In this document: piece after piece, positions 1,847-61,800 of the stretch
Numbering within the stretch: the first letter of the stretch is position 1
Layout of the letters: each line of letters starts with the position of its first letter
DNA from: an uncultured virus (IMG/VR IMGVR_UViG_3300011445_000001)
Lineage: Duplodnaviria > Heunggongvirae > Uroviricota > Caudoviricetes
Virus record (IMG/VR): IMGVR_UViG_3300011445_000001
Length of the DNA: 64,000 nucleotides
Direction: 5' to 3' (one strand)
Position numbers and translations under genes: made by a program
The notes under the pieces: model-generated
What the model saw: only the letters and a program-made list of their open reading frames with translations
Told to the model about the DNA's origin: nothing
Databases searched by the model: none

Positions 1847-1862
1847 GCAAATCCAATGCCCG
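1847..1862 (-). promoter_or_regulatory. sigma54-type -24/-12 promoter
   Basis: Minus strand GGGCAT-TGGAT-TTGC (GG-N10-GC), intergenic. Confidence 0.7.
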
Positions 1863-3027: not shown

Positions 3028-3043
3028 GCAAGGTTGGTGCCAG
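3028..3043 (-). promoter_or_regulatory. sigma54-type -24/-12 promoter
   Basis: CTGGCAC-CAACC-TTGC; the 28 bp at 3021-3048 are identical to 27692-27719. Confidence 0.8.
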
Positions 3044-9255: not shown

Positions 9256-9271
9256 GCAAACACCATGCCAC
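9256..9271 (-). promoter_or_regulatory. sigma54-type -24/-12 promoter
   Basis: TGGCAT-GGTGT-TTGC in an intergenic gap. Confidence 0.7.
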
Positions 9272-11377: not shown

Positions 11378-11393
11378 GCAAACCCAATGCCGA
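11378..11393 (-). promoter_or_regulatory. sigma54-type -24/-12 promoter
   Basis: TCGGCAT-TGGGT-TTGC-GGTCTTTTA; downstream TTTGCGGTCTTTTA is shared with the 27276 promoter. Confidence 0.75.
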
Positions 11394-25492: not shown

Positions 25493-25509
25493 TGTAGCCA
25501 ATTTTACAC
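25493..25509 (-). promoter_or_regulatory. GTGTA-type late promoter motif
   Basis: GTGTAAAA-TTGGC-TACA upstream of the holin. Confidence 0.6.
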
Positions 25510-27275: not shown

Positions 27276-27291
27276 GCAAAATCAGTGCCAA
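27276..27291 (-). promoter_or_regulatory. sigma54-type -24/-12 promoter
   Basis: TTGGCAC-TGATT-TTGC-GGTCTTTTA. Confidence 0.8.
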
Positions 27292-27698: not shown

Positions 27699-27714
27699 GC
27701 AAGGTTGGTGCCAG
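27699..27714 (-). promoter_or_regulatory. sigma54-type -24/-12 promoter
   Basis: CTGGCAC-CAACC-TTGC, identical to the 3028 copy. Confidence 0.8.
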
Positions 27715-27792
27715 CCCAAGGTCTGCGAAAAGGCCTTGGAAGGCCACGCCGCTGTGCAGGTAGCTGCACAATATAGAGCAGATCCCATCACC

Positions 27793-43875: not shown

Positions 43876-44186
43876 GCTTCGGCCTCCGTAAGACCGGCCT
43901 CAGACATCAGGGTCTGGGCCACCTTAAGAATGTCGCGCCAAGACTCGAAGTCCGAGATGATGGTCTTGGGGTCGCCCTCAATGCCCTCGATGGAGACGAT
44001 CTGCTCGGCGAGGATGTCAATCAGGGAGTCGCAGCGTTGGATGGGGGAGTCCGAGCTGTTGGTTTCAAGCTCGGCGATCCGGGAGGCCAGTATCATCTTA
44101 TCCCGGACCGACATGGGCTTGACGGTGAAGACCGTACCGTCTACCGTCATGGTTCTGTTCTTGGAACGATCGATGATGCGGAGCAT
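43848..44186 (-). CDS. tail assembly chaperone (gpG-like)
   Basis: Between tail tube and tape measure; ends EAGN. Confidence 0.8.
   Translation of the reverse strand: MLRIIDRSKNRTMTVDGTVFTVKPMSVRDKMILASRIAELETNSSDSPIQRCDSLIDILAEQIVSIEGIEGDPKTIISDFESWRDILKVAQTLMSEAGLTEAEAGNSVSSPA
43869..43875 (-). other. programmed -1 frameshift slippery site G GGA AAC
   Basis: XXXYYYZ heptamer in the correct frame near the end of the chaperone gene. Confidence 0.8.
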
Positions 44187-44241
44187 TGTACCACCTTCCA
44201 CTTAGACCACATTAACCGCTTGCCCGGCTCGAGCCGGGAGT

Positions 44242-45234
44242 TTACCAGCCGCGCAACTCGGAGTTGGTGATCGTCACCACCAGAGCATCGTTGGCGGTAT
44301 GGGACGATGCCTCGCCCACGATGGTGATGGTCGCACCATACGAGCCGTCAGTCGTCGAAGCAACGTCCGTGATCTTGCCCTTGAGGGTGACCGTAACGTT
44401 ACCAAAATCGACGTCGAGGGTGATGTCAGTACCCGCCTGCAGAGCGTCGTTCGAGTCGTTGTAGTTCTCATCGTAGAGGATGCTCAGCGACCCCGAGATG
44501 GTGCGGTTCGTGAACCCCACACTCAGGAAGCCCCCAATACCGTCGATACCCACCGGGGTAACGTCGTGGGTGGCTTCAACCGAGAACCCCGAGATCAGCA
44601 CGTCGGTCAGGCCCGCGCCCGTATTCAACTGGGCGCTCAAAATGTTGTCATCATAAAGGCGGCCATAGGAGTCGGTGCCTTCGGGGGTTGGGGTGATGTT
44701 GCTGGGGTTCGAAGTCGTCGACAGGGTCGATCCGTTGGCCACCACATCAGCCGCGAACTTGAGGGGGTTGCCCCGCTCCCAACTGAGCATGAAGCGCTTC
44801 GTGACGGCGCCCCCTACCTTGTGAGACTTGGATGCGTCCGGGCTGACCTTCACAAAGGACAGAAAGTGGCCCGCGTCGGCCCCAAAGTCGGGATTTGTCG
44901 TGAAGTACGAGAACGACTTCGTATAGTCCGGAGATACACCCTCCGTGACGTTCTGGAAGTGGGCCGCCGCCAGCAGGTCGAGGACATGGACATCCACGTC
45001 GCCCGACACGGTGAAGTTCGGCATGGCTCCACCGTCCTTGTGGACCGTGTTCCGGGTGGTCTGGTTCTTGTTGGCGTGAACCCCCGGGGTCGTATAGATC
45101 TTGGTGTCGAACTTGATGTCGAAATGCTCGCAATCAAGCCCCTGCCACGGCCCGGCATCAACGGTAGCGGCTGCGAAGTCGGTGCCCTCGGCAACCGCGT
45201 ACTGTAAGTCTCTTGCTTCTCTAAAAGTCGTCAT
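44242..45234 (-). CDS. major tail tube protein
   Basis: Position, size, beta-rich (RTISGSLSILYD); strong SD and own promoter motif. Confidence 0.75.
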   Translation of the reverse strand: MTTFREARDLQYAVAEGTDFAAATVDAGPWQGLDCEHFDIKFDTKIYTTPGVHANKNQTTRNTVHKDGGAMPNFTVSGDVDVHVLDLLAAAHFQNVTEGVSPDYTKSFSYFTTNPDFGADAGHFLSFVKVSPDASKSHKVGGAVTKRFMLSWERGNPLKFAADVVANGSTLSTTSNPSNITPTPEGTDSYGRLYDDNILSAQLNTGAGLTDVLISGFSVEATHDVTPVGIDGIGGFLSVGFTNRTISGSLSILYDENYNDSNDALQAGTDITLDVDFGNVTVTLKGKITDVASTTDGSYGATITIVGEASSHTANDALVVTITNSELRGW

Positions 45235-45251
45235 GGCAGTATTCTCCTGAT

Positions 45252-45268
45252 AGTATTCGGTTTTACAC
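45252..45268 (-). promoter_or_regulatory. GTGTA-type late promoter motif
   Basis: GTGTAAAA-CCGAA-TACT. Confidence 0.65.
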
Positions 45269-45276
45269 CGGTCTTC

Positions 45277-45702
45277 TTAGACTTGGGTGTGCCTCTGGAC
45301 CTTGAGGATAGTGGCTAGGACCTCACCGCCCCGGGTCTTGGAATCGTCGAACTCGGCGTCCATACTCGTGACCTTCACCTCGAGGACGCGGTAATTGTCG
45401 CCTAGGTCGACGTTGGCCTTTAGGACCTCAACCACCCGGTCGATGTTCGCGCGGGTTGAAGGGTTGTTTCGGGCGAACCCAATGAAGGATGAGTGCACAT
45501 GGATCGAGATTACTATCTCGTGTCGGTTTAGAATGTCGTTCGACCACCCCTCGTGGTTGGTGTCCTCACCCACAACCTGAACCGTCACCGAAGGTAGGGT
45601 GAGATGGGCCAGCGCATGGTAGTTAGCCGACTGGGTAAGGAACTCCCCATCCATCAACGAGTAGATCTTGTTGTGGGCGATATTGAGTACATTGAGGGCC
45701 AT
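45277..45702 (-). CDS. tail completion/terminator-like protein
   Basis: Position and size. Confidence 0.5.
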   Translation of the reverse strand: MALNVLNIAHNKIYSLMDGEFLTQSANYHALAHLTLPSVTVQVVGEDTNHEGWSNDILNRHEIVISIHVHSSFIGFARNNPSTRANIDRVVEVLKANVDLGDNYRVLEVKVTSMDAEFDDSKTRGGEVLATILKVQRHTQV

Positions 45703-45703
45703 G

Positions 45704-46114
45704 TTAGTTCTCGTCCCTCGGGGCCCAATAGACCATCGCCACCGTAAAGCGTGCGCTGCTGTTTTGGTTATTCTCCCAAAGCTCGGGCCCCGCTACCGAC
45801 ACCAGCTCGAACCCCAAGCAATGTTCGCCTAGGTCAATGGGCTCGAGGATCGCATTCTTGATTTCGGCGACCAGTTCCTCAATGGCGTTGTAATTCTCCT
45901 TCGTGAACACGATCAGCTCGATACGCGCCATGAACCGGGAGTCCGTAGCATCGATCACTAGGGTAACCTCATCTCCGGGCACGACCGCTACGTAGGGGGC
46001 TAGGTTCTCAATCACAGGCTGATCATCCACAAAGCGCGAGGCCTTGTTGACAAGGGGCAGCGCCTCGAGCGAGGTCACTATCGAGTTCAGCAAATCAATT
46101 CGAGTACTAGGCAT
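45704..46114 (-). CDS. tail terminator-like protein
   Basis: R..LL.SI...L...PYVAVVPGDE pattern; position. Confidence 0.5.
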   Translation of the reverse strand: MPSTRIDLLNSIVTSLEALPLVNKASRFVDDQPVIENLAPYVAVVPGDEVTLVIDATDSRFMARIELIVFTKENYNAIEELVAEIKNAILEPIDLGEHCLGFELVSVAGPELWENNQNSSARFTVAMVYWAPRDEN

Positions 46115-46484
46115 TGTCTCGATCCACGAACGGCGGGGGTACCCGCTTCTGAATTTCGTCTAACCGCTCCCGAAGAGCGGGGGCCAGCTTGGGTATGTTG
46201 GTTGTCGGTACGTAGACCGGCTCCTTGGTGATCTCGACGGGCGGATCTCCCGGGGCGGTTCTCGGTGACGCTTCCTCGACGAAGTAGTAGGCCATGGTGT
46301 CGGTCCAGACGCAGTCGGGCGCCCGCATCGTGCGGCCCCGCCGAAGCTGCTCGAAGGCCTGTAAACGCTTCAGCCCGAACAGGGGGCGCAGGGCAACCTC
46401 GATGAACTTCCGGCAGAGGGGGTTGCGGTTCGACATGCTCTTGTACTTCGCCAGCGCCGCGTCGTTTAGCTTAATATACCTCAT
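46107..46484 (-). CDS. hypothetical protein in head-tail module
   Basis: ATGA-coupled ORF. Confidence 0.45.
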   Translation of the reverse strand: MRYIKLNDAALAKYKSMSNRNPLCRKFIEVALRPLFGLKRLQAFEQLRRGRTMRAPDCVWTDTMAYYFVEEASPRTAPGDPPVEITKEPVYVPTTNIPKLAPALRERLDEIQKRVPPPFVDRDNA

Positions 46485-46879
46485 CGGAATAGCTCTCCCA
46501 ATTTCCGCTCAAGAATCCTCAGCACGAAGTCATTGTCGAATTCCTTGCTGAAGTAGCGGCTGGGCCGAATGCGTGTGCGATGACCCCTGCCTGTCAGACC
46601 ACCCAGATCCTGAATACGGGCGTAGGGCATGTTCGATTCTACGGTCAGGGTCGTAATTAAGCCCTTCTCGGTGACCGAGCTTTTGATCGAGCGACCAAGG
46701 CGCCCGGTTATTGGGCCGATCACCCGCCCCATGGCGTTGAAGGAGATGAGATCTTCGAGCTTGACCGCCGCCTCTTCCATCCCATCGAAGACGTACTTCT
46801 TGAAATTCTTCTGAATGTTGGCCAGCTGCGGGGGCGTGGTCTTGGGAACCTTGATCTGGAGGAACACTAGAACGTCCAC
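46481..46879 (-). CDS. HK97 gp10-like / virion morphogenesis protein
   Basis: TGRLGRSI...SNMPYARIQDLGG...RPSRYF. Confidence 0.7.
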   Translation of the reverse strand: MDVLVFLQIKVPKTTPPQLANIQKNFKKYVFDGMEEAAVKLEDLISFNAMGRVIGPITGRLGRSIKSSVTEKGLITTLTVESNMPYARIQDLGGLTGRGHRTRIRPSRYFSKEFDNDFVLRILERKLGELFR

Positions 46880-47352
46880 CCTAGAAATCCCGGCTGCGAT
46901 AGGAACGCTCCCACGTCGGGCATGAGGTCAAGGGGGCTGCCAAAATAGCGGTAGGGCTCGAGCATTTCTTTGATTTTGGCTGGCTCGGCGAGATTTAGTG
47001 ACCGCTGCTTGTCTCCATCGGCCCAAGAAGCGACCCCGATGTTCGAAGCCACAAGCATACGCCAGTCGACCAGCAGGTGGCATGCGTCCTTGATATCAAG
47101 AGGGAGTTCATCTACGTCCGCATAGGGGGCGTAGGAAATGCCCGGGTTGGGCGACATTGGCTCCGGGATTGTGCTATCTGGAAGGAGGGGGCGCTTGAGG
47201 TAGAGCTCAATCGCGCGCGAGGCGCGGTTAATGAAGAACTCAAAGCGGGCGCATTCCGCTACTGAAAGTTCCCGCGTGATTCCCTTGTATAGCGCATGTT
47301 CTTCGGCGGTGACAAGGGCTATAGGCGTTAGGTCCGAACCTGAACAGGCCAC
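46867..47352 (-). CDS. head-tail adaptor (gp6/gp15-like)
   Basis: ASRAIELYLKR...LPLDIKDAC...MLEPYR. Confidence 0.7.
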   Translation of the reverse strand: MACSGSDLTPIALVTAEEHALYKGITRELSVAECARFEFFINRASRAIELYLKRPLLPDSTIPEPMSPNPGISYAPYADVDELPLDIKDACHLLVDWRMLVASNIGVASWADGDKQRSLNLAEPAKIKEMLEPYRYFGSPLDLMPDVGAFLSQPGFLGWTF

Positions 47353-47393
47353 CGTCGTTGCTCCAGTTGAAAGGTTAGATAAGATACGCGACA

Positions 47394-47411
47394 GGGGGCC
47401 ATTCGGCCCCC
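47394..47411 (-). terminator. hairpin after the capsid gene
   Basis: GGGGGCC-ATTC-GGCCCCC. Confidence 0.55.
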
Positions 47412-47435
47412 TTCATTATCGCGTTACTGGAGCTA

Positions 47436-48320
47436 CTACACGACCTCGGTGACGAGGCGGTAGGCCGCACGCTTGGAGCCGTACACCAGCTGCGAGCGCA
47501 GCACTACGTCCCACACCTCGGACAGATTTCCGGCGGTCTGCTTCGGTCCATCGACCAAGAACAGGCCCCCGTCAGCCGACACCATCTCGCAACCTTCCGG
47601 CCCAATGTTGTAGAAATTGAAGGCCATGCGGTTGGAGGCGTCAGCGGTGATCTGATCCGCGTTGAAGAACAGCACGCCGTCGTTGTGGATGGTCGAGAAG
47701 CCGAAATCCTGCATCGCAAGAATCGCGGCCGTGTTTCCACCTGCAGCGGCGCGGAGTGCACGCTTGACGCAGTTGTAACCTGCGTCACCGGTGATGCAGA
47801 CGTTGTAACCCGACTTGGGCAGACTGGTCAGCACACCGTCAAGGACGTCCAGAATGTCCGCAGCCTCGCCACCCACCAGATCGGTCTGGAGGGGAGCATT
47901 GGCCACGAAGTCCTGAATGCCCCACATATCGAACGCCGTGCCGTCGCCTGACCCAACGATCTGGGCCACCGTGGTACGGTAGATCTGTGCCACCGCAGCC
48001 TCGCTCGAGCGGGCCGACTGGAAGCCATCTTCCGTCGCCTTGGAGCGGTAAGCCTGCGATGCGATCTGGCCGAGCCCGAGGGTGAACGTATCGTCCACCT
48101 GAGCGGCCACACCGGAGTTGGGAATGCCAGCGGACGTGCCGAGTGAAGCGGCCGTCGCACCGTCAGTCCAGTTGATGCGGAGTCCCGCAAGCGGAACCGG
48201 ACGCGGTACGCCCAGCGCCATCACGATCGGCGCCTGACCCATCAGAGCCTGACCGAGAGAGGGGTAAACGGTCAAACCCTCGATGGCGGCGTCCCACTGT
48301 GCCTTTGTAGGATAAGCCAT
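47436..48320 (-). CDS. major capsid protein (HK97 fold inferred)
   Basis: Follows scaffold; IVGSGDGTAF..GI and LDVLD patterns; terminator downstream. Confidence 0.7.
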   Translation of the reverse strand: MAYPTKAQWDAAIEGLTVYPSLGQALMGQAPIVMALGVPRPVPLAGLRINWTDGATAASLGTSAGIPNSGVAAQVDDTFTLGLGQIASQAYRSKATEDGFQSARSSEAAVAQIYRTTVAQIVGSGDGTAFDMWGIQDFVANAPLQTDLVGGEAADILDVLDGVLTSLPKSGYNVCITGDAGYNCVKRALRAAAGGNTAAILAMQDFGFSTIHNDGVLFFNADQITADASNRMAFNFYNIGPEGCEMVSADGGLFLVDGPKQTAGNLSEVWDVVLRSQLVYGSKRAAYRLVTEVV

Positions 48321-48442
48321 GTGAAACCTCTTGTGTTAAGTGCTTCGGGTTGATCGCTACTTGCTCCCGGCCGAATCTCCATTCGGGCCTAGCAAATGAA
48401 CGAAGTTAATTCTTGCCTTCCGGCAAACGCCAAATCTGAAAT

Positions 48443-49156
48443 CTACTTCGACGCCGCTACCGGCTTGGCCGGGAACAGGGCGTTGAACTGCTTCTCCTGC
48501 GGAGTCCGACCGGGCGTGCCCTCGGGGGCGTCGTCGGCCTTGGCCTGTACCTGCGCCCACGGATTCGCGGGCTTCGGCTTCTCGGCAGGAGGCGCCGGAG
48601 CGAGGGTATCCTTCCACTCGGCGGCGAATTCCTTGATGAAATTCTCGGCGGTATCCTCTGACAGGTTGGGGGCGGTCGAGATTGCCATCTTGACAATCTT
48701 CGGGGCGAAGCCCTTGCCAACCAGCGCTTCAGTCACCTTCGACACCACCCTGTCACGGACGATCGAACCCTCGAGGTTACTGTACTTGGTCTTCAAGTCG
48801 AGGATCTCCGCGTCACGCTTGGCGAGCAATTCGACAGCTCGCATGTCTTCCTCGGAAGCCAACTTCTCGGCCTCCTCATACTTTTCCAGCTTCTTCTGCA
48901 TCTCATCGATCTTGATCCGACGGGCCTTTGCTTCCGCATTGGCGGCGAGCTTGGCGTCCCGTTCCGCGTTCAGAGCATCGAGCATGTCCTTCTTGCTCTT
49001 GCTTTCCCATTCCTTGACACGTGCTTCATCGGCTGCCTTCTGATCGGCTGCCTTCTGTTCCTCTGCCTTCGCTTCGGCTGCTTTGGCCTCGGCGGATTGG
49101 GTTTCGGCTGCCTTTGCGTCGGCTGCCTTTTGCTCGGGAGTCTGTTCGTCGGCCAT
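48443..49156 (-). CDS. capsid scaffolding protein
   Basis: Charged coiled coil with Pro-rich C-terminus, between portal and capsid. Confidence 0.75.
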   Translation of the reverse strand: MADEQTPEQKAADAKAAETQSAEAKAAEAKAEEQKAADQKAADEARVKEWESKSKKDMLDALNAERDAKLAANAEAKARRIKIDEMQKKLEKYEEAEKLASEEDMRAVELLAKRDAEILDLKTKYSNLEGSIVRDRVVSKVTEALVGKGFAPKIVKMAISTAPNLSEDTAENFIKEFAAEWKDTLAPAPPAEKPKPANPWAQVQAKADDAPEGTPGRTPQEKQFNALFPAKPVAASK

Positions 49157-49194
49157 TATTTACTGCTTTCTGCCCATCCGGGCGATTCACGGTT

Positions 49195-49211
49195 AGTAGC
49201 ACCTTGTACAC
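49195..49211 (-). promoter_or_regulatory. GTGTA-type late promoter motif
   Basis: GTGTACAA-GGTGC-TACT upstream of scaffold/capsid. Confidence 0.65.
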
Positions 49212-49219
49212 ACTAGGAA

Positions 49220-50740
49220 TTAATATGCTTCCTCTGAGGAGGTATCTCTGGGGGGCTTGGGAGGACCGGGGGGCGGCGTTGGTGTTTCGTTCGGGGGCGT
49301 CTCATCCTCCGGGGTTTCCCCTTTGGCTTGGGGCTTGGCCGCGTCGTTGATCTTCTTGTTCTCGTCGATGCGCTCCTGCGCCGCTTCTACGGAGAGGTCG
49401 GGGTTCTCTCGGCGACCTATCTCAGCGGCCGTGATCAGGTTATTAGCCAGCATGAACTCGTAGTAGGCAATCTTCTCCGGGATTGAGGCAAAGACGTTCG
49501 TCTCGTCCGGGGCGAAGTCAATAGTTAGCTCGATACCCGGGGGTATCTGAACCGCACCCTCTTCCTTGTTGGCCTCTACCCAGATCAGCTCCCAGAGTTC
49601 CTGCTCAAAGGATGAGAGGATTGGGCGCCGGGACCGTACGAGATCAAGCAGCCCCGACTGAGAGTTCTGTAGGGATTCGGCCGTCTGGACCTGTGCACTG
49701 TTACCCTCGAAATTCTTGAGAGCATGGCCCCGCATCGAGAGCATGGTGCGGTAGATGTTTTGCAGAAGCTCGAATACCACCGCTGGCTCAGTTTGAGATG
49801 GGCCGACGTAGGAGATCTCCTTGGGTAGGGGCTTGCCTTCGTCGTCAAGCTGATTCTCGTAGTTGATCTGGCGACACCCCGACACGATCTTCTGGGCTAT
49901 AGAAGTAGCCTCAACGTGTGAGAACCCGCCCAGCACTAGGAACTCGAATAGGGAGGTCTGGGTGGTCATGACCGAGTGCGAGGCGAGCAGGGATCGCACC
50001 TTGCAGAACGACAGCAGGCCCCCGTCAACCGGGCCCCAAAATCGCTTCGAATCGGGCGTCAGGCGGAGGACAGCCCACGGAAGTCGGTCGTGTCCGTGTG
50101 GCTCGGTGATCACCTGCGGCTCCTGCTGCTTGACCTTGATGGTGGTCACCACATTCTCTTCATCCCACACCACTTCGACCGAAGCGACCTTGCCCTCGGG
50201 GGTCTTAGTCTTGTACTTGTATATCACCTTGGCGGCGATAGAGGGGCGCATCATGTCCACCTCTACATCAAGACCCCGGTATGACGGACACTCCTTGACC
50301 AGCTCCATTTTGCCGGTAAACTGGTTGTAGGTAGGTCGCACAAGCACGGTGCCCTCGTAGGCAGCCTGTCGCTCGTACTGGAGCATCCACATGTCGAAGT
50401 CCATCTCCTTGTAGATCTCCTCGATGCGCTCGAGCACCTCTTCGGACGGCTCCTCACCGTCGATGAGGAAGTAGCGAATGGGGGGTCGAATATAGGTCTT
50501 GCACTCGGCGTCGATGATCTTGCGGACAACCGACAGGTAGAGCGAGTAGATTGTCAGTCGCTCCTTGTTGACCAACGACCGGACCCGCTCGTCGATGTTG
50601 ACTTCATCAACCCCAACGCCCGAACCCCGGTACTCGATATCGAGCATCAGGGCGTCGCACGCTAGCTGGGATCGGGAGGGGTCTCGGGCTTCGAACTTTG
50701 CCGGATAGGGCATGCCCATAAAGCTAAACGGTTCGGCCAT
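49220..50740 (-). CDS. portal protein (SPP1-like)
   Basis: 506 aa after terminase; ENPDLS.E.A...I.EN C-terminus. Confidence 0.75.
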   Translation of the reverse strand: MAEPFSFMGMPYPAKFEARDPSRSQLACDALMLDIEYRGSGVGVDEVNIDERVRSLVNKERLTIYSLYLSVVRKIIDAECKTYIRPPIRYFLIDGEEPSEEVLERIEEIYKEMDFDMWMLQYERQAAYEGTVLVRPTYNQFTGKMELVKECPSYRGLDVEVDMMRPSIAAKVIYKYKTKTPEGKVASVEVVWDEENVVTTIKVKQQEPQVITEPHGHDRLPWAVLRLTPDSKRFWGPVDGGLLSFCKVRSLLASHSVMTTQTSLFEFLVLGGFSHVEATSIAQKIVSGCRQINYENQLDDEGKPLPKEISYVGPSQTEPAVVFELLQNIYRTMLSMRGHALKNFEGNSAQVQTAESLQNSQSGLLDLVRSRRPILSSFEQELWELIWVEANKEEGAVQIPPGIELTIDFAPDETNVFASIPEKIAYYEFMLANNLITAAEIGRRENPDLSVEAAQERIDENKKINDAAKPQAKGETPEDETPPNETPTPPPGPPKPPRDTSSEEAY

Positions 50741-50742
50741 CT

Positions 50743-50988
50743 CTACTTCCAGTGCAGCTTATCGAAGAAGGTTAGAATTAGCCCAGCAATTGTCACAATT
50801 CCGGCGCCTATCCACCGGATGGTCCGGGTCGTGGCATCCAAACGAATAAGGGACTTCTCACAGTCCTCTACCCGTTCGGTTAGCTTCTCCATGACCGGAG
50901 CGTGGGCGGCGAGGGCCTTTTCTGCGCCCTTAGAAGCCGCAAGCTCCACCCACAGCGGGATCTCGTGGTCGGACATGCTGTCGGACAT
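50743..50988 (-). CDS. small coiled-coil protein with C-terminal TM
   Basis: IRWIGAGIVTIAGLILTFF. Confidence 0.55.
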   Translation of the reverse strand: MSDSMSDHEIPLWVELAASKGAEKALAAHAPVMEKLTERVEDCEKSLIRLDATTRTIRWIGAGIVTIAGLILTFFDKLHWK

Positions 50989-51228
50989 CTACCTGCCCTT
51001 AAGCCAGTCCAGTACGGCCTCTGCCTTGAGCCGGACCCACAGCGCCACGGCGCGCACAGCATCGCGCACCTTGTCCCACTGGTCGAGTAAGAACCACTTC
51101 ACGCGGTCAAGCCACGTGGGCGGCAGGAAATAGACGTCGATCTCGGGATCGGGTAGGGGGGTTCTCTTCGCCGCGCGTTTGCGCGGGACTAGAGACCGGG
51201 TCTTCCTTGTGGATTTGCGCTTGGCCAT
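50989..51228 (-). CDS. small basic hypothetical protein
   Basis: MAKRKSTRK..., AGGAG SD. Confidence 0.5.
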   Translation of the reverse strand: MAKRKSTRKTRSLVPRKRAAKRTPLPDPEIDVYFLPPTWLDRVKWFLLDQWDKVRDAVRAVALWVRLKAEAVLDWLKGR

Positions 51229-51235
51229 GTTGCTC

Positions 51236-51379
51236 CTACTTGGGTTTGCGGACGTGCTTGAACATCTGCATCTGCCGTTCGCGTTCTTTGGCGTCGTCCT
51301 TGGTGGAATAAACCTTGGGGTAGAGATGGCCGGTAGACTTCGACCGGATTCTGTACCCACCCTTTGCTTTCTCGATCAT
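51236..51379 (-). CDS. small conserved-type phage protein (47 aa, not in ORF track)
   Basis: MIEKAKGGYRIRSKSTG...AKERERQMQMFKH; directly downstream of a GTGTA motif. Confidence 0.6.
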   Translation of the reverse strand: MIEKAKGGYRIRSKSTGHLYPKVYSTKDDAKERERQMQMFKHVRKPK

Positions 51380-51394
51380 TTCGGGCCTCGTGGG

Positions 51395-51411
51395 GATACG
51401 CCCTTGTACAC
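51395..51411 (-). promoter_or_regulatory. GTGTA-type late promoter motif
   Basis: GTGTACAA-GGGCG-TATC. Confidence 0.6.
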
Positions 51412-51415
51412 CCGG

Positions 51416-53098
51416 TTAGCCGAACGCTTGGTTAAACAAGGCAACCTCAGCGGCCGTGAGTACGTGTGGTTCCGCCTGTGCGCCCCGATTCTTGTAGATA
51501 AGCGAGGCTATGAGGGCATAGTTGTCTGCGTGGCGGTAATCGTCGCCGTGGGGGCCCTTGTTCCATCGGGGCCACCGGAACTCACCTTTGTCTACCATCA
51601 CCCGGACCGACGACAGGAGGTGGGATACAAACTCCCCATTGCAGATCTGGGTCACGAAAGTGGGCAGTGCTATACCCCCGTTGCGATAGGCCTGTGCGGT
51701 GAAGTCAAGAGACTCTTGTCGGTTGGCGATGATGCGGCCCCCGGGTTCGTGGTGGTACATGCGCTTATTGTCTTCCTTGCCGAGGTCGGTATACTTGCAG
51801 GTGAATACCCGATTGGGGTGGCGCTTACGCAAGGCTTGGGCGCCCTCACCCGCTAGCCAATCGCCGCCGCCTTCGTCGATCACGACTACTGCGGCATTGA
51901 ACACGGCCATGGCCTCCTCGAGGTCGGCCCACCGGCTGAACTTGCTGGCGTGGATCAGCTGGCGTTGACCATCTCGGATCTGCTCTATGGCCATATAACC
52001 GGGCTGGTCAACCCCAATGACGACGGGATACTCGAACCGGGTGCCCTTGGCTTGCTCTACCGTCGGGTAGTAGACGACCTTCGGAGTGGCGGCCTTCAGG
52101 ATGTCAGAGATTCCAATCTTGGCGGTGGCCTCGACGTAGGGCAGCCCGAGATCGAACCGGTAGAAGATCGCCAGCTTGTGGGGCGAGCCTTGGGCCTTGA
52201 TCCACCGGTCGAGCATCTCGTGGATGGTGCGTTCCTGTGGGGCGGCGAAGAGCTTGGGGATGTGGTACCCCGATGTCGTGCTCTCGGGGTTCTCGGCCAC
52301 CCACGTCCCTGCGCCTAACCTATCGAATGGGTCTCCACACTTGATGCAGACCGGCTGACCCGATGGGTGGTTCAGTACCCACTGGTCGTTCTCGAGGTGG
52401 ACGAAGTGGATGAGCCAGTCGAGCTCTTGGGGGTGGCCACATTGACAACGAACGTGCCATTTGTTGCGGGTCGTCTCTTCCTCGAAGATCTTGTGTAGCC
52501 CCATACCCGGGTGGGTTGGATTTCCAAGGCGAATTGTGTGCGGGTTGTCTGAGGCGCCTTGGCGGGTATAGGCGAGGTCGAGGTTACCACCGGCCAAGCA
52601 GAGGTCGTACTCGTCGATGAACACCACGTCGGTAGCGTTGACGAAGAAGGTCTTCTCGGTTGTTGCGCCGCCGAACATCCACCCGGTACCATAGATCGAC
52701 TTCAAGGCGGACGAGTCGGCTGCCTTCTTGGATTGCTGCATCTCTCCTACCGCCGACCGATACTCGGGTACCCGGGCGACAAGGCCGTCTAGGCGGTCAC
52801 GGATGAAGTAGCGCATCAGAGTCACGTCGGGCAGTAGGTAGATTCCGCGCAAACCTCGCTTAGCAAAGCTGAACATCGAGGCAAAGGCCAAGGTAGACAT
52901 GCCTATCTGCGATGCCTTCATCCAAACTTGATTGGGGTTGTTATCCTTGAGGATGTCGACCATCCACAGGCGGTTATCAAACTGAAGTGGTGCGTGTCGA
53001 GTGCTTAGGTGGTAGAAGTGAGCATAGAAGAGCTTGGGGTACTTCTCCCATAGCTCCGATGCGACCTGTGCGTCGTCGAGCACCTCCGGTTGCGACAT
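51416..53098 (-). CDS. terL: terminase large subunit (GpA-like ATPase)
   Basis: MKASQIGMST, VFIDEYD, GNPT, CQC/CIKC Zn motif, IGVDQ, DDYRHADNY. Confidence 0.88.
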   Translation of the reverse strand: MSQPEVLDDAQVASELWEKYPKLFYAHFYHLSTRHAPLQFDNRLWMVDILKDNNPNQVWMKASQIGMSTLAFASMFSFAKRGLRGIYLLPDVTLMRYFIRDRLDGLVARVPEYRSAVGEMQQSKKAADSSALKSIYGTGWMFGGATTEKTFFVNATDVVFIDEYDLCLAGGNLDLAYTRQGASDNPHTIRLGNPTHPGMGLHKIFEEETTRNKWHVRCQCGHPQELDWLIHFVHLENDQWVLNHPSGQPVCIKCGDPFDRLGAGTWVAENPESTTSGYHIPKLFAAPQERTIHEMLDRWIKAQGSPHKLAIFYRFDLGLPYVEATAKIGISDILKAATPKVVYYPTVEQAKGTRFEYPVVIGVDQPGYMAIEQIRDGQRQLIHASKFSRWADLEEAMAVFNAAVVVIDEGGGDWLAGEGAQALRKRHPNRVFTCKYTDLGKEDNKRMYHHEPGGRIIANRQESLDFTAQAYRNGGIALPTFVTQICNGEFVSHLLSSVRVMVDKGEFRWPRWNKGPHGDDYRHADNYALIASLIYKNRGAQAEPHVLTAAEVALFNQAFG

Positions 53099-53569
53099 CT
53101 AGTTCAAGAACCCGCGTGCGGCTTCGAGGCGTTCGGGCGTAGACTGGATGGTTAGGGTCCGAACCGAGCCGGACTGCTGGACGGCCGCATTGCGCTCCCG
53201 CTCGCTCATCATGTCGTGGATGGCCCGGAGTGCGTGAACCTTAAGGGCCGTCTTGATTGAGGGGGAAGTGGCAATTTCGCTAAGCTTCTTGACCCGCTGA
53301 AAGAGGCTGGCGAACTGGACCCGGTTCAAGATGTCTTCGGCCGCGCGCCTACGTTCCTCGAGAATACGGGCTGGCCATCCCTCGGGCCCGGTGTTCTTCA
53401 TGTAGAGGCCACAAGAGGTTCTGAAGGACTGGTATGAAACGGAAAGCGGAGGCTTACCTGAGTCCTCTGTCCACTGGGGCGAGGTTAGGTAACCGTAGAT
53501 GTCCTTCGGCCTTTCGAAGCTTGCTAAGGCCGTTATGATGTGGTCTATGTGGGCTTTTGTGAGTCGCAT
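53099..53569 (-). CDS. putative terminase small subunit
   Basis: Immediately upstream of terL; helical. Confidence 0.55.
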   Translation of the reverse strand: MRLTKAHIDHIITALASFERPKDIYGYLTSPQWTEDSGKPPLSVSYQSFRTSCGLYMKNTGPEGWPARILEERRRAAEDILNRVQFASLFQRVKKLSEIATSPSIKTALKVHALRAIHDMMSERERNAAVQQSGSVRTLTIQSTPERLEAARGFLN

Positions 53570-53592
53570 CGTGGTACCCCTCCGGGTTGTTC

Positions 53593-53609
53593 ACTAGCGA
53601 CTTGTACAC
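53593..53609 (-). promoter_or_regulatory. GTGTA-type late promoter motif
   Basis: GTGTACAA-GTCGC-TAGT at the head of the virion module. Confidence 0.6.
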
Positions 53610-53716
53610 GGCCCGGATGTGTGTCGGGGGCCTACGACGGTACTACGAAGGGCGGTTTAGGCGGTCTTGGGGGGCCCTGAACCGGGTCTGAAGCGGCTTT
53701 AGAGGGGCGTCAGGGG

Positions 53717-53836
53717 CTACTCTTTGCGTCTTGGGTGGCAGATGGGACAGTCGTCACCACAGCATGAGAAGACCCCGCCAAGCACAAGCGCAACTAAGAT
53801 TACGATGGCGGTGCAAATGGCCTGCGTGGCGCTCAT
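53717..53836 (-). CDS. 39-aa membrane peptide with Cys cluster (not in ORF track)
   Basis: MSATQAICTAIVILVALVLGGVFSCCGDDCPICHPRRKE. Confidence 0.4.
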   Translation of the reverse strand: MSATQAICTAIVILVALVLGGVFSCCGDDCPICHPRRKE

Positions 53837-53975
53837 GTCGTTCGATCACTTCTCGAAGGTCGGCTTGCCACAAGCTGGGCATCTAACGGGCGGATACTGA
53901 TCCAAGAAGGCGTCCCCGCATGCGGTCTGGTAGATGCCGTCGTTGTCTAGCTCCCATCGGCAACGGCTAAGTGAG

Positions 53976-54791
53976 TTATCGGCCACTGTAGTCGTACTGC
54001 GATCCTTCGTCCGAACCGGGAAAGCTGTCGGGGTGGGTCGGCACTTCCGCGAGATTGCCGACGTTTTGCCAGCCGGGTTCATAGGCGAATAGGCACTCGT
54101 TACATGCGGTCTCCTGCTTGTGGGCGACCGCGATGGTATCTCCGAACTGAACTACCGGCTTCCAGTTGGGGGGTGCGATGAACTCTGAGGCGGTGACGTG
54201 GTTGGCCTTGGTGAGATGTTCGGCAAAGGCCCAGTACGCTTGGCTGTCGAACTTGCCCTTGGGTCCGGGTGCTGAACGACCGGCATAGGGCGGATCGAGG
54301 TAGAAAGTGGCGCCCGTATAGTTCTCGTAGGTGAGGTAGTCGACACAGACGAGGGTGATTTGGTCACGGTGGGCCTTGAGGATGTCTACCTTCTTGGTCC
54401 ACATGCGCTTGAGCGAGGCGCTCATGTCGCCCTTCTTGCTACGAGCATAACCACCGAACCACGAAGCCGCGAAAGCCATTCCGAAGCCGACGTAGGCCGT
54501 CATTGGGTCGTTCGGGTCGCGTATGGCCTTGTATTGCTTGAAATCGGCCTCAGATACGGTGTCAGGAGGAACCCACCCGTCGAGTGACGCCATCCATGTC
54601 GTCATCAACGCCGGGTGGAGGTCGGATAGAACAATGCGGACGTCCTTGGGCAGTTGGGGGATCACCTTCATGGCGGCTCCCAAGGCGCCGCAGAACGGCT
54701 CAACGTAGAGCTTGCATTCGGGGTCCCAGTTGGCAATGATATAGTCGGCGATTCGGCCGCCCTGTCGCATCTTTCCGCCCAAATATCGCAT
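53976..54791 (-). CDS. D12-class (Dam-like) DNA N6-adenine methyltransferase
   Basis: MRYLGGK, YVEPFCG, LSD, YLDPPY, SE. Confidence 0.85.
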   Translation of the reverse strand: MRYLGGKMRQGGRIADYIIANWDPECKLYVEPFCGALGAAMKVIPQLPKDVRIVLSDLHPALMTTWMASLDGWVPPDTVSEADFKQYKAIRDPNDPMTAYVGFGMAFAASWFGGYARSKKGDMSASLKRMWTKKVDILKAHRDQITLVCVDYLTYENYTGATFYLDPPYAGRSAPGPKGKFDSQAYWAFAEHLTKANHVTASEFIAPPNWKPVVQFGDTIAVAHKQETACNECLFAYEPGWQNVGNLAEVPTHPDSFPGSDEGSQYDYSGR

Positions 54792-54962
54792 CTAGTACCT
54801 CGGGTCCCAACGCTTGAGGGCGTCGATGAAGGTGAGTTCAGGAACTACGGTTTTCGCGTACTTGCCGGTCGTCACGGCCGCACCAAGCCGAATTGCGGCG
54901 AAGTATACCACTCGACGGGGCAGCATGGCGGCAACGGTGGCCGCAAGCCAGTCTTTGATCAT
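54792..54962 (-). CDS. small hypothetical protein (56 aa, not in ORF track)
   Basis: MIKDWLA...LPRRVVYFAAIR...ALKRW; GAGGAG SD. Confidence 0.5.
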   Translation of the reverse strand: MIKDWLAATVAAMLPRRVVYFAAIRLGAAVTTGKYAKTVVPELTFIDALKRWDPRY

Positions 54963-55162
54963 GTCGTCTCCTCAACTTTGATGGTTACTAGGCGCGGCAT
55001 CAATTCGCCGCCATATCTGGTATAGTCGCGGCCACCGTCAACGAAGGACTTGCCGCACGGACAGTGGCGAAAATCGTGCCGATGCCTCGACCATACGATC
55101 TCATGGCACTCTCGGCAGATGATGCCGGTGAACTCGGTCGGGATCACAGACTGGTAGGCCAT
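54959..55162 (-). CDS. small Zn-binding conserved phage protein
   Basis: CREC...SRHRHDF..CPCG...VDGG.DY.R. Confidence 0.7.
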   Translation of the reverse strand: MAYQSVIPTEFTGIICRECHEIVWSRHRHDFRHCPCGKSFVDGGRDYTRYGGELMPRLVTIKVEETT

Positions 55163-55341
55163 GGCGAGACGCGCTTCGAATCGCGACCCTTCTTCTGGCG
55201 CTTCTGGAGGATCTTTATGGCCGCTTTAGCGTGCTTGACGACCGATCCGGGCAGGGCGTCGCGGTTGAGCTTGTCGAGGGCTATGATCTGTGATAGCAGG
55301 CGCAGGGCCCATGCCTCGTGATTGTGGCTAACGTGAGGCAT
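55144..55341 (-). CDS. hypothetical protein
   Basis: Packed ORF. Confidence 0.4.
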   Translation of the reverse strand: MPHVSHNHEAWALRLLSQIIALDKLNRDALPGSVVKHAKAAIKILQKRQKKGRDSKRVSPWPTSL

Positions 55342-55436
55342 TTAGGGCCTTCTTCCGATTCGGGCCTTGATTATGGGGGCGGCCACAGCGCACACCGCCA
55401 CTCCAGCGACTACGACTTCAGTGCAGACGAAGCACA

Positions 55437-55805
55437 TTAGCGGTTATCTCCATCACCATGAAGGGTGTCCTTCTTGGCGCGTTCGTCGAGCTTCTTGATG
55501 TTGGCGGCGGCGACGTCCGATAGCTTGGCGCCTATTTCGTCGCAAGTGGCCGAGAGATACCACAAGGCGTCTCCCAACTCCTTGAGAATGGCCTTGCGGT
55601 TCTCCTCGGTAATCTCCCCGCCTTGGTCGCGCGCGATCTTCTTGACCTTACCAGCAACCTCGCCAGCCTCGTTGGTTAGACCGAGGACCGTATACTCAAG
55701 AGCCCCAAGCGGATCGGCATGCTTACAGTGGCAGTAGTCGCAAAACCGATGGCGCGGGTAGATCTTGAACCGGCGGGCTTTCTGCTGGTAGTCGTTGAAA
55801 TTCAC
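55437..55805 (-). CDS. MazG-like NTP pyrophosphohydrolase
   Basis: MNFNDYQ, LGLTNEAGEV, KELGDALWY, NIKKL..R, GDGDNR. Confidence 0.88.
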   Translation of the reverse strand: MNFNDYQQKARRFKIYPRHRFCDYCHCKHADPLGALEYTVLGLTNEAGEVAGKVKKIARDQGGEITEENRKAILKELGDALWYLSATCDEIGAKLSDVAAANIKKLDERAKKDTLHGDGDNR

Positions 55806-56194
55806 TGCGCGACTACGATTGGCAGGTTACAGTTCTCGCCGAGCGGGTACCCCGGGGTCAGGTCGAGTGTCAGATTGGTGCCCGGCGCCAGCCACACGCC
55901 AACGAGGCAAGGGTCGGTGGGGTGGTGTCGCATATTCACCACTTGTGGCTGATCACAGGGCGAAAGCTCGGTGGTCGTGAAATACTGAATCTGGTGGGCC
56001 GTATTGCCAACCAACCGCCAATTGCATGGTTCTGCCTCAGGAGGTGGTGCGGCCGAGGTGGTCGGCTCGGTCATCGACCTGTGGTGGTCTACAGGGCTCA
56101 CGGAGTTCGAACAGCCGGTCGGTCCGGCGCTGATAAGCAGCAAGAGGACCAAAATCAGCACAAACAGGGCGATCATCTTCACGTATTTGGACAT
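55802..56194 (-). CDS. putative lipoprotein
   Basis: Signal peptide followed by TG-CSN. Confidence 0.55.
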   Translation of the reverse strand: MSKYVKMIALFVLILVLLLLISAGPTGCSNSVSPVDHHRSMTEPTTSAAPPPEAEPCNWRLVGNTAHQIQYFTTTELSPCDQPQVVNMRHHPTDPCLVGVWLAPGTNLTLDLTPGYPLGENCNLPIVVAQ

Positions 56195-56242
56195 TAGTTC
56201 TTTCTCCTTGTTGGCACACGTACACCCCTCTGGGCCAAACGC

Positions 56243-56583: not shown

Positions 56584-57300
56584 TCACAAGCCCTCGTCCG
56601 GCTTATCAACAATCAGCCGCCGTGGGCGTTTAGTCCCCGGGTGCCAAGAGCGCTGCTTGGACCCGGCGTGATCGATGAGACTGGTGGTGGTCGAGGCGCA
56701 CCAGAACCCCTCATGGTGGATGCGGCGCATGACGGCACCCTCGACGTCGCCTATAAGTCTATCGGTTGGGAAGGGATGGCCGAATCGCATAGCATCATCG
56801 AACCGCATCAGAAGGCAGCACCCCGGCACGAAGGGTCGAACCCCGCCCTCGACCACCTGAAGCGGGCCCGCATCAAACACCCGGGCCTCCTCTTGCGAGG
56901 AGTGCCTAAATCCCGATAGAGCTCTTAAACCGGTCGGGTAGAATCGCTCGAGAGTGGCGACCATGGTGGACTCCCACTCATGCGAGAAGGTGAGATCGTC
57001 ATCGCACAGCAAGACGTAATCGGGCGGACAACCAGCAGGAACCACATAGCAAGCCTCAGTCAGGAAAGATAGGCCCACGTTCCACGCGTAGCCCTTACCG
57101 TAGTTGTCATCGAGGAGGATGGCGGTCAACGGGAGGGTCTCAAGGTACTTTCGGGCGGTGGAGGTTCGAACCCCCTGCTCGACCACCACCAGCGGACCCG
57201 CAAACTCCGAATCAAAGAGGGAGGTCAGAGTAGCCCGAAGAAGGGCCGCCCGCCCCATGCTGGCCATTACAACGCCGACGGTACCGTCTTTAGGCGGCAT
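56584..57300 (-). CDS. GT2 (GT-A) glycosyltransferase, paralog of 27793-28485
   Basis: NYGKGYAWNVGL, LCDDD, LRALSGFRH, PGCCLL, IDHAG. Confidence 0.8.
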   Translation of the reverse strand: MPPKDGTVGVVMASMGRAALLRATLTSLFDSEFAGPLVVVEQGVRTSTARKYLETLPLTAILLDDNYGKGYAWNVGLSFLTEACYVVPAGCPPDYVLLCDDDLTFSHEWESTMVATLERFYPTGLRALSGFRHSSQEEARVFDAGPLQVVEGGVRPFVPGCCLLMRFDDAMRFGHPFPTDRLIGDVEGAVMRRIHHEGFWCASTTTSLIDHAGSKQRSWHPGTKRPRRLIVDKPDEGL

Positions 57301-57360: not shown

Positions 57361-57383
57361 AACAAAAGGCGCCCCCGGGCGCC
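57361..57383 (-). terminator. intrinsic terminator after endolysin
   Basis: GGCGCCC/GGGCGCC stem plus TTTTGTT on the minus strand. Confidence 0.55.
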
Positions 57384-57962: not shown

Positions 57963-58433
57963 TCAGCCCACAAGCGTGACGGAGGCCACCCCATTCGGGA
58001 TGCGATTTTGGAGCTTCTCGTACGCCGCTTGTAGAGACGGGTCCGGGTAGGTCCAGCCGTCACGGTAATACACCTTGACGATTCCGGCTTGTATCAGCTC
58101 CTTCGTGCAGCCAAAGCAGGGGCGCATCGTACAGAACATCTCGCCACCCTCGACGGCAATACCAAACCGAGCCGCAGATAGGAGGGCGTTCTGCTCGGCG
58201 TGCACACAAACACAAATGTCGTAATTCGTACCGGATAGGTACTTCACGCTATCTGCGCACCGATCGCAACCACCGTCAAGGCAGTTGGTCATGTTCGAAG
58301 GTGTGCCATTGTATCCAGTCGAGACCACGCGATTGCCAACCACGATAACGGCCCCGACGCGGCGGCCCAGACAATTAGCCTTGGTCCCAACCGCCACCGC
58401 AATCCCCATGAAGTACAAGTCACGATTCTGCAT
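57963..58433 (-). CDS. dCMP deaminase family
   Basis: VGAVIV, TGYNG, HAEQNA, PCFGC. Confidence 0.9.
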   Translation of the reverse strand: MQNRDLYFMGIAVAVGTKANCLGRRVGAVIVVGNRVVSTGYNGTPSNMTNCLDGGCDRCADSVKYLSGTNYDICVCVHAEQNALLSAARFGIAVEGGEMFCTMRPCFGCTKELIQAGIVKVYYRDGWTYPDPSLQAAYEKLQNRIPNGVASVTLVG

Positions 58434-58704
58434 CGCGGCCCTTCTGCTCTTCCTTAGCGACCATCAGCTTCATCTCCTCGGCCCTATCAAATACCATCAG
58501 CATCTTGTGGCAATTAGAGCATTCGGCGTTCGGCTCAAGGGCAATCGGACTTGGGCAAACCAAAATCGCCACAAAATCGCACGCAATGCAGTGGGCCTTG
58601 CCCACCAGCCAAAGCGGCTCGCCGGATTCTAACATCCGCTCGGCCATACGCTTGGCCCATTCTTCGTCTAACTCATCGGCCACGAGACAGATCCTCAATC
58701 TCAT
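58420..58704 (-). CDS. hypothetical Zn-ribbon protein
   Basis: CIAC...CSNC. Confidence 0.5.
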   Translation of the reverse strand: MRLRICLVADELDEEWAKRMAERMLESGEPLWLVGKAHCIACDFVAILVCPSPIALEPNAECSNCHKMLMVFDRAEEMKLMVAKEEQKGRDAES

Positions 58705-59983
58705 GTAGCCGCTCGAGAGTGCGTCGAGACTCCCACTGCCCGGGGGTGCTGTAGTACAGACTTTCTAAGTCGATGTTGTGCTTTGCACACACCTGTTCAG
58801 CAAGCCTCTTAATGCGAGCCCGCCAAATAGCCACAGCCCCGCGCGAGGATTGAAATCTCGCAGCAATCTCCTTCGATTCGTACCCCAGATAGAACAGGGC
58901 GTTCACCGCCGTCAAGCTTTTGATGGTGCCTCTATGGTCTCGCCATGGCTTGGTTTGCTCTAGCTCTGCCTGCAGGAGCGTAAGGAACCGCTCAAGGGGC
59001 GAAGACACCACATCACCATTATCGCAAAGCTTACTGACCTCGGGGTGCAGGAACTCCTCGCCGTCGTTGCCTGTGAAGAACAGGGGCTCGGCTTGTGACA
59101 GAACATTGCGGACCGGGCGCTCCCTCTCGTCGCGACAAGCCCGACAGACCCTACAGTCGACGCACACCTTCCGGTTCTTGCACTGCTTACACAGAGTGAA
59201 CTGGTAAGAGTCGTCACACGTCAAACACGCCGGAGCCTTGGCGGGCTTATGGCCCACGCAATCGGGGCAGTGATTGCACGCCTTACATACTCGACACATG
59301 GAATTGGGCCGTGCCGGGCTACAAGACTTACATTTCTCACAGAAGCCGGGCGTCAGACACCCCCCATGGATGGCGCACCTCGAACATTCCTTGGTGCGGC
59401 CGTTATCGCGAAGATGGTTGAGGCAGACGGTGCGGATGACTCCAAACACGTGGGTGGTGAAAGAAGCGCCCACCGGACTGGGTAAAGCGCATATACACTC
59501 CTCGATAACGCGGAACTTGATCATACGAACGTAGACGTTCTGCTCTAAATCGTCTATTAGGCTTGAGTCCCGCACCCCGAAGTTCTTGATGGCAGCACGA
59601 ACCCGATCCTTCCACGTCCGATAGAAGGTGTCCATGTCCATGGCGTGATCACACTTACACCGCTTACGGGCATCGCTTTTCTTGACAAACTGCGGCGTCT
59701 TCTCGCCGTGCTTGGGCGTCGGGGGCGTAGAGCCGAGGAAGGTGGCCGTATCGGGGAAGCGCCCCCGATGCGCCTTGCTGATCTTGCCAACACCATAAAC
59801 AAACGCCGTCCGAACTTCATCGGTATCCAACATCCGGAATGTGTAGGACTCTCGTTCTTCTGCTGGGCAATCCTTCAACACGCCCTCAAGGTCGGCCGAG
59901 AGGTAAAGTGAGAAGGCCTCTCCGTTGACAATGATGTAATCCTCGGGGCTGGTCTGTAGCTTAGAGATTAGGGACTTTTTCAT
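58673..59983 (-). CDS. ECF-like sigma70-family factor with Cys-rich insertion
   Basis: Region 2 DDLEQNVYVRM...SFTTHVFGVIRTVCLNHLR; region 4 LGYESKEIAARFQSSRGAV...RAR; 19-Cys insert between them. Confidence 0.7.
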   Translation of the reverse strand: MKKSLISKLQTSPEDYIIVNGEAFSLYLSADLEGVLKDCPAEERESYTFRMLDTDEVRTAFVYGVGKISKAHRGRFPDTATFLGSTPPTPKHGEKTPQFVKKSDARKRCKCDHAMDMDTFYRTWKDRVRAAIKNFGVRDSSLIDDLEQNVYVRMIKFRVIEECICALPSPVGASFTTHVFGVIRTVCLNHLRDNGRTKECSRCAIHGGCLTPGFCEKCKSCSPARPNSMCRVCKACNHCPDCVGHKPAKAPACLTCDDSYQFTLCKQCKNRKVCVDCRVCRACRDERERPVRNVLSQAEPLFFTGNDGEEFLHPEVSKLCDNGDVVSSPLERFLTLLQAELEQTKPWRDHRGTIKSLTAVNALFYLGYESKEIAARFQSSRGAVAIWRARIKRLAEQVCAKHNIDLESLYYSTPGQWESRRTLERLHEIEDLSRGR

Positions 59984-61784: not shown

Positions 61785-61800
61785 GCAAACCGCGTGCCCG
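61785..61800 (-). promoter_or_regulatory. possible sigma54-type -24/-12 promoter
   Basis: GGGCAC-GCGGT-TTGC in a short intergenic gap. Confidence 0.45.

Follow-up and report, generated by a model that had tools for sequence, protein, structure and literature searches.

A phage sigma-70-family factor with a cysteine-rich, probably zinc-binding insert and its place in a probable sigma54-to-phage-sigma promoter cascade

The DNA analyzed in this study is a stretch of 64,000 nucleotides (nt; hereafter the window) from an uncultured virus of the Caudoviricetes (IMG/VR record IMGVR_UViG_3300011445_000001). A gene on its minus strand encodes a 436-amino-acid (aa) protein, P0001, which, judged by profile and fold, is almost certainly a member of the sigma-70 family. 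P0001 comprises an N-terminal extension, a sigma2 domain, a Cys-rich insertion, an acidic linker, and a sigma4-like helix-turn-helix (HTH) domain (Table 1). The initial annotation had described a phage sigma factor with an 84-aa, 19-Cys stretch between regions 2 and 4, and the translation bears this out, with all 19 Cys at residues 200-283. The N-terminal extension, estimated there at about 115 aa, is likewise present (~112 aa); it is also found in the three closest relatives, and a short motif of it recurs in a further relative, P0008. In addition, promoter-like motifs in the same DNA point to a well-supported cascade from host sigma54 to the phage sigma factor. This promoter logic is a firmer result than the function of the insert.

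Profile searches for both sigma regions placed Sigma70_r2 (PF04542) above its cut-off on residues 120-197 (E 2.7e-5, 24.3 bits, cut-off 24), as in five of nine relatives, and Sigma70_r4_2 (PF08281) below its own. No match to sigma3 (PF04539) was obtained in P0001 at E values up to 1. A feature search of P0001 in the Atlas returned sigma-like clusters (0.95-0.96). In the AlphaFold2 model, the insert and the N-terminal extension were poorly predicted and the sigma domains fairly, with 10-residue blocks at predicted local distance difference test (pLDDT) values of 50-90 and 76-87. Residues 111-194 of the model matched sigma2 of the extracytoplasmic function (ECF) factor SigK (4nqw; Z 9.2, root-mean-square deviation (rmsd) 1.9, 76 aa), and residues 328-405 matched region 4 of sigmaE (2h27; Z 8.0, rmsd 2.4, 68 aa). 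For helical domains, Z values of this size are middling; both domains matched one and the same family, in the correct order. In each domain, fold and sequence were matched best by the ECF factors SigK, SigL, AlgU, and sigmaE, and P0001 resembles these in its acidic linker and in having no sigma3 match. The description of the protein as ECF-like holds for its domain folds and fails on the formal definition of Casas-Pastor et al. (PMC7826278), which sets an upper limit of 50 aa for the stretch from sigma2 to sigma4. Unlike ECF factors, P0001 has 138 aa at this position, an N-terminal extension of 112 aa, no conserved -35 element, and no anti-sigma factor identified beside its gene. No second sigma-like gene was found among the phage genes scanned, some small genes lying outside the scan.

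The boundaries of the insertion were derived from locus L004, whose insert-less orthologue (P0013) aligns contiguously to P0001 residues 116-196 and 292-377. Because this alignment is unbroken across the site, the net insertion corresponds to residues 197-291 (95 aa). When 1.84 billion representatives were searched for family members, 11 matches were returned. In addition to P0001, the insert was carried by P0002-P0004 (38-46% identity); P0005 and P0006 were without it, and P0007 and P0008 had an unrelated, non-Cys insert of ~50 aa at the same site. All 15 ungapped Cys columns were invariant in the four inserts, compared with 8 of 61 other columns, and the codon usage of the insert was like that of the remainder of the sigma gene. 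The insert is thus a non-chance, selected, lineage-specific addition. The four carriers formed one clade (ultrafast bootstrap (UFBoot) 72), with weak deeper nodes, in a tree of 11 family rows and one outgroup, the ordinary bacterial ECF-like gene L005; alignments were made without P0011 (repeat artefact) and P0009 (a 60-aa fragment).

The insert was matched nowhere else in Pfam, the Atlas, or phage tblastn searches and contained no tandem repeat; no Rfam match was obtained. A PDB profile search returned nothing significant, the best matches being a ZZ finger (PRT1; E 0.058) and a PHD finger (E 0.43), and the ZZ-type Cys spacing is present in all four inserts. A weak match to all four was obtained with phrog_15341 (best E 0.0021). 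Among longer proteins, the only carriers were the four already known (4 of 132 candidates, which is weak evidence), shorter stand-alone forms being outside the search. Regarding other family loci, scans of viral contigs returned only this phage, scans of genomes returned none, and tblastn of phage and plasmid collections returned none; across these contig, genome, phage, and plasmid searches, no DNA was found for P0002-P0008. No internal sigma insert of such size was described in the literature searched, the supplements, including the ECF group texts of PMC7826278, being outside the search.

The distance between sigma2 and sigma4 was 138 aa in P0001, 116-117 aa in P0002-P0004, and 42-44 aa in insert-less relatives. 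The insert is followed by an acidic segment of 35-37 aa (net charge -5 to -8) that was present in all seven proteins checked, insert-bearing or not, and was predicted as a beta-hairpin by AlphaFold2. According to PMC6372665, ECF and group 1 factors have acidic linkers that pass through the active-site cleft, and sigma3 contacts the DNA immediately upstream of the -10 element; PMC12276001 describes a comparable long linker for gp36 of phage phiEco32. By analogy with these accounts, residues 292-327 would form a sigma-finger-like linker. The site between sigma2 and this finger-like linker, where the insert lies, is the slot of sigma3 in group 1-3 sigma factors. The initial annotation had suggested that the insert re-spaces the DNA-reading domains. 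This is unlikely, because the docking sites of sigma2 and sigma4 on the core enzyme are fixed and the polymerase-threading linker is intact after the insert.

The inserts of P0002-P0004 contain 15 Cys and one invariant His, for a total of 16 potential ligands, and that of P0001 contains 19 Cys and the same invariant His (His206), for a total of 20. These totals differ by four and therefore fit four and five tetrahedral sites, respectively. The inserts are basic (net charge +6 to +11 in all four), with a Cys density of 20%. Ferredoxin, radical-SAM, and c-type haem proteins carry the signatures CxxCxxCxxxC, CxxxCxxC, and CxxCH. None of these motifs, nor CC or CxC, nor any DnaJ or metallothionein motif, occurred in any of the four inserts. 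Of the multi-zinc or Fe-S module proposed in the initial annotation, metal binding is thus upheld by the ligand counts and the Fe-S part is not; as read from the sequence, the insert is probably a Zn4-5 module. The spacing of Cys and His in the P0002 insert (2,2,2,4,2,2,8,2,2,8,2,5,2,2,2) is nearly symmetric, and the extra four-ligand unit of P0001 sits at the midpoint of this near-palindromic pattern, which suggests a nested hairpin with meeting ends, as insertion into a loop requires. DnaJ and zf-CXXC offer analogies for such a nested zinc hairpin. Six more Cys/His (C109, H113, C163, C165, C187, and C320) are invariant outside the insert in the insert clade; C109 also occurs in P0007 and P0008, and the other five are missing from the other six rows. 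These residues may form an extra site on the sigma2 specificity loop.

Motif statistics were computed on 69,983 bases (the window and 5,983 bases from L003), with genes called by our own script. Of 50 gene starts preceded by a gap, 16 had the motif GTGTA 5-75 nt upstream, and none of 51 packed starts did (p 3.5e-10). Among 1024 5-mers, GTGTA ranked first, with no second phage-specific motif close in rank, and its reverse complement preceded only one of the 50 gap-preceded genes. An A was present at position +7 in 13 of the 16 sites (GTGTAnnA). No 3- or 4-mer upstream of these 16 presumed targets exceeded shuffles (best fraction 0.195). As a candidate -35 element, TTAA at 17 nt occurred in 3 of 16 sites, not above shuffles, and was rejected. 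Scans of two ranges for sigma70-type promoters yielded chance-level counts (5 vs. 4.2 and 3 vs. 6.2). The GTGTA motif noted in the initial annotation is thus real and well above chance, and these results support its reading as a single-element phage promoter. Its assignment to late transcription was too narrow: the downstream genes include the one preceding the terminase large subunit and the tail tube and holin genes, as well as helicase, PurZ-like, and NDT-like genes, so GTGTA marks middle and late units. By association, the phage sigma factor very probably reads this motif.

Four minus-strand GTGTA boxes (23235-23239, 13310-13314, 8555-8559, and 7195-7199) lie 9-12 nt before a start codon, three of them with little or no ribosome-binding site; leaderless or near-leaderless mRNAs are likely here. 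In run X1, recorded as a freshwater sediment metatranscriptome, 14 contigs matched at an identity of at least 99%, in patches within 44031-56202 that cover parts of the tail tube and the putative capsid and scaffold genes, DNA carry-over being possible. The sigma gene was covered by none of these contigs. At least three X1 contigs end 19-25 nt downstream of GTGTA boxes; these were not counted, as contigs cannot show transcript starts and may derive from DNA.

The consensus of sigma54 promoters is GG-N10-GC. The sequence TGGCAY-N5-TTGC occurred four times (0.28 expected). Its relaxed form GGCAY-N5-TTGC occurred at seven sites (shuffle mean 0.85), all on the sense strand and all fully within non-coding DNA, which makes up 7.6% of the sequence, and at none on the antisense strand. 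The sigma54-type promoters reported in the initial annotation are thus borne out. One of the seven boxes heads the co-oriented gene run that extends from 61756 through the sigma gene to a terminator-like hairpin, and the sigma gene is probably expressed from it, a point we hold slightly less firmly than the reading of GTGTA. In addition, a perfect sigma54-type box (L004:1136-1151, plus strand) lies ~30 nt before the start of the insert-less orthologue (chance 0.01), which makes the cascade look like a shared property of the family that does not hinge on the insert. Taken together, these arrangements give good support to the host-sigma54 to phage-sigma cascade that had been proposed. No such cascade was described in the literature searched, supplements being outside the search. 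Within the seven, a near-identical 41-nt cassette (93%) with a sigma54-type box and a start codon is present at 27679-27719 and 3008-3048 (minus strand), and two other boxes have a 14-nt tail in common.

Table 1. Features of the sigma locus and associated promoter-like elements (window coordinates)
Feature	Position	Strand	Basis or remark
Phage sigma-70-family factor gene (P0001, 436 aa)	58673..59983	-	Open reading frame, Pfam, fold
N-terminal extension, residues 1-112	59648..59983	-	No Pfam family; common to P0002-P0004
Sigma2 domain, residues ~113-196	59396..59647	-	Pfam, fold
Net insertion, residues 197-291 (95 aa)	59111..59395	-	Missing in P0005, P0006, and L004/P0013
Cys-rich core, residues 200-283	59135..59386	-	19 Cys + His206 = 20 putative ligands
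Acidic linker, residues 292-327, net charge -5	59003..59110	-	Sigma-finger-like; beta-hairpin predicted at 302-312
Sigma4-like HTH domain, residues ~328-405	58769..59002	-	Pfam below cut-off, fold
Sigma54-type -24/-12 box heading the sigma gene run	61785..61799	-	In a 46-nt gap
Sigma54-type box	27276..27290	-	
Other sigma54-type boxes	27699..27713, 11378..11392, 9256..9270, 3028..3042, 1847..1861		
Terminator-like hairpin	57368..57383 (L003:12601-12616)	-	Ends the run after a GH108 lysozyme gene
Gene upstream of the sigma gene, 160 aa	59961..60443	-	30% identity to the gene upstream of the L004 sigma gene
Small gene with two CxxC pairs	58420..58704	-	Overlaps the sigma stop codon
GTGTA box	53605..53609	-	35 nt before the gene preceding the terminase large subunit
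GTGTA box	49207..49211	-	50 nt before putative scaffold/capsid genes (assigned by position only)
GTGTA box	45264..45268	-	29 nt before the tail tube gene
GTGTA box	25505..25509	-	31 nt before the holin gene

Considering these results, we slightly favor the following explanation as a whole over its negation. [quoted passage not shown] The insert would fold as a basic module with four (relatives) or five (P0001) tetrahedral Zn sites, placed at the end of sigma2 and outside the active-site cleft, leaving the finger-like linker free. There it might steady a complex formed on a -10 element alone, through sequence-independent contact with upstream DNA and/or contact with the polymerase; this stabilizing role, taken on its own, is tentative and falls just short of an even chance.

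The closest functional parallels are phiEco32 gp36 (with gp79) and gp47 of phage 7-11 (PMC8948821, PMC12276001; PDB 9m7y), which likewise combine sigma2- and sigma4-like domains with a long linker that threads the cleft. According to PMC8948821, the element that gp36 reads ahead of middle and late genes is a single one, tAATGTAtA; it has TGTA in common with GTGTA. The fold match of P0001 to gp36 (Z 6.8) was no better than that to bacterial sigma factors, and P0001 had no tblastn match in a collection of 50,697 phage records. The available text of the two papers mentions no zinc insert in either gp36 or gp47, and the early promoters of phiEco32 and 7-11 are given as sigma70-type, in contrast to the sigma54-type boxes found here. 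Pseudomonas phage YuA (10.1101/2023.10.13.562163) combines a sigma54-like promoter with a phage-specific motif that requires a phage factor; one sigma54-like promoter was mapped there, whereas seven boxes are predicted here, one of them heading the sigma run, with the same arrangement in L004. Additionally, Gp17 of Bacillus phage vB_BceM-HSE3, as cited in PMC7826278, is a phage sigma-like protein with a double zinc ribbon (PF12773). The ribbon is said to replace sigma2, with no sigma4 match, whereas P0001 retains both domains, and PF12773 had no match in the insert.

Several observations weigh against the favored explanation. The match to Sigma70_r4_2 on residues 363-393 (E 0.037, 14.1 bits) is below the cut-off of 25.7. 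The box heading the sigma run has one mismatch, no upstream element common to the seven sigma54-type sites was found, and the sigma gene could alternatively be expressed by read-through from upstream replication genes. No GAFTGA-type activator motif was found in the 69,983 bases, so the sigma54 step would require a host activator. With respect to the insert, most of it was below pLDDT 50 in both AlphaFold2 models; the His in the counts of 16 and 20 was picked by its invariance, each insert having two to five His; and the six Cys/His outside the insert could alter the ligand arithmetic. Furthermore, insert-less relatives exist, so the insert is dispensable for the basic function of the family, and the unrelated insert of P0007 and P0008 shows that the site is permissive.

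The rival explanations are not mutually exclusive. According to the first, which originates from the initial annotation, the insert senses redox state or metals, and its unfolding by oxidation or metal exchange turns the sigma factor on or off and so gates middle and late transcription. Known precedents are CorE/CorE2 (ECF238), which need a C-terminal Cys-rich domain and a CXC in the linker (PMC8999054), and OrbS, which senses Fe(II) via Cys (PMC9023288). Like P0001, these factors have a Cys-rich module within the sigma factor and no anti-sigma factor. Through the extra invariant Cys/His on sigma2 and the linker, the module could be tied to the domain that reads the -10 element, and a sigma54-driven first step would already link the phage to the state of the host. 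The modules of CorE and OrbS, however, are reported as tails of ~20 aa with 4-6 Cys, together with the linker CXC in CorE, whereas the 16-20 rigidly spaced ligands here are internal, directly after sigma2, grow by four, and look structural. Both the CorE-type tail and the linker CXC are missing: the last Cys of P0001, C399, is conserved in none of the three relatives, and the invariant CxC lies within sigma2 (163-165). We consider a sensor unlikely. A combined version, in which a zinc-finger array replaces sigma3 as the third DNA-contacting domain and also acts as a redox/metal switch, is less likely still. [quoted passage not shown]

No more probable than the sensor is a role of the insert, with or without the N-terminal extension, as a protein-binding co-activator or as a dock for a phage replication protein. 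Such a module would steady the sigma factor on the core enzyme or displace the host sigma factor, as the separate gp79 does; gp36 is described as requiring gp79. The best PDB matches are peptide-binding ZZ and PHD fingers, the ZZ spacing is conserved, and a small CxxC protein is encoded across the sigma stop codon. Nevertheless, these matches are non-significant, and the basic charge of the insert equally suits nucleic acid.

It is also conceivable, at a probability somewhat below that of the combined version, that GTGTA is read by a host alternative sigma factor or another phage protein, P0001 having other targets or being a core-sequestering decoy. P0001 and the motif are linked through guilt by association, its sigma4 has diverged, and ~1.1 kb of the 71-kb contig lies outside the analyzed sequence. 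Against this, no second phage-specific motif ranks near GTGTA, and a phage sigma factor of similar structure reads an element that GTGTA resembles.

The insert is very unlikely to carry Fe-S, iron, or Cu(I) instead of Zn. Although 4Fe-4S and rubredoxin-type sites also take four Cys each, and the Cys density is high, the motifs listed above are missing from all four inserts, and 75 residues are short for four clusters, about 55-60 residues holding two. Equally improbable is that the site, being permissive, holds a passenger of near-neutral effect or a selfish element such as an intein or intron. This reading would agree with the absence of the insert from close relatives, the other insert in P0007/P0008, and its occurrence nowhere else, and is opposed by the invariant Cys columns, the gene-like codon usage, the single clade, and the correlated gain of Cys outside the insert. 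Inteins are recognized by a Hint domain and splice-junction residues; the insert (75-95 aa) has no Pfam match, hence no Hint domain, and no His-Asn end.

Little variation has been thought to exist in the part of sigma-70 factors that joins sigma2 to sigma4, which is a short linker or sigma3 together with a linker. At a single sigma site, the family analyzed here has three natural states: some members lack an insert, some carry one without Cys, and some have a probable metal module with 16 or 20 ligands. This would permit a direct test of a domain in the sigma3 slot at a promoter with only a -10 element. Proteins of this kind escape standard ECF surveys, whose limit is 50 aa. With its conserved sigma54 box, the family would clearly exemplify a phage cascade hung on a host activator-dependent promoter, and the GTGTA promoter and its sigma factor may serve as an orthogonal expression pair.

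Among the neighboring genes, the upstream gene encodes an EELxHxH motif and has no Pfam match; we take this motif to recall SprT-like metalloproteins, with the first His missing. The downstream CxxC protein showed no similarity to the insert.

Elsewhere on the minus strand, genes at 7199-8332, 25509-26204, 12842-13300, 55437-55805, and 19358-20377 encode PurA/PurZ-like, DUF5664 (dATP/dGTP diphosphohydrolase), NDT-like, MazG, and adenosine deaminase proteins, a set that is a possible kit for 2-aminoadenine (Z) DNA. Under the combined sigma3-like and switch version considered above, should this set make the phage DNA contain 2-aminoadenine, both the zinc module and the ATP-driven step of sigma54 may help to open harder-melting promoters. 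The PurA/PurZ-like protein scored 216 bits with the PurZ model, under the cut-off of 300, and has Ser in its N-terminal loop where archaeal PurA has Asp. The phage DNA polymerase was far under the DpoZ cut-off. According to PMC12884076, DUF5664 and NDT-like genes occur alongside PurZ0. A cluster at 14209-22340 (minus strand) contains at least four glycosyltransferase genes, a DegT aminotransferase gene, and two methyltransferase genes, and may serve DNA or virion glycosylation. Genes for peptide deformylase-like and SppA-like protease proteins were found at 11891-12562 and 13332-14051 (minus strand), and a 36-nt stretch is identical between two glycosyltransferase-like genes (28271-28306 and ~57071-57106).

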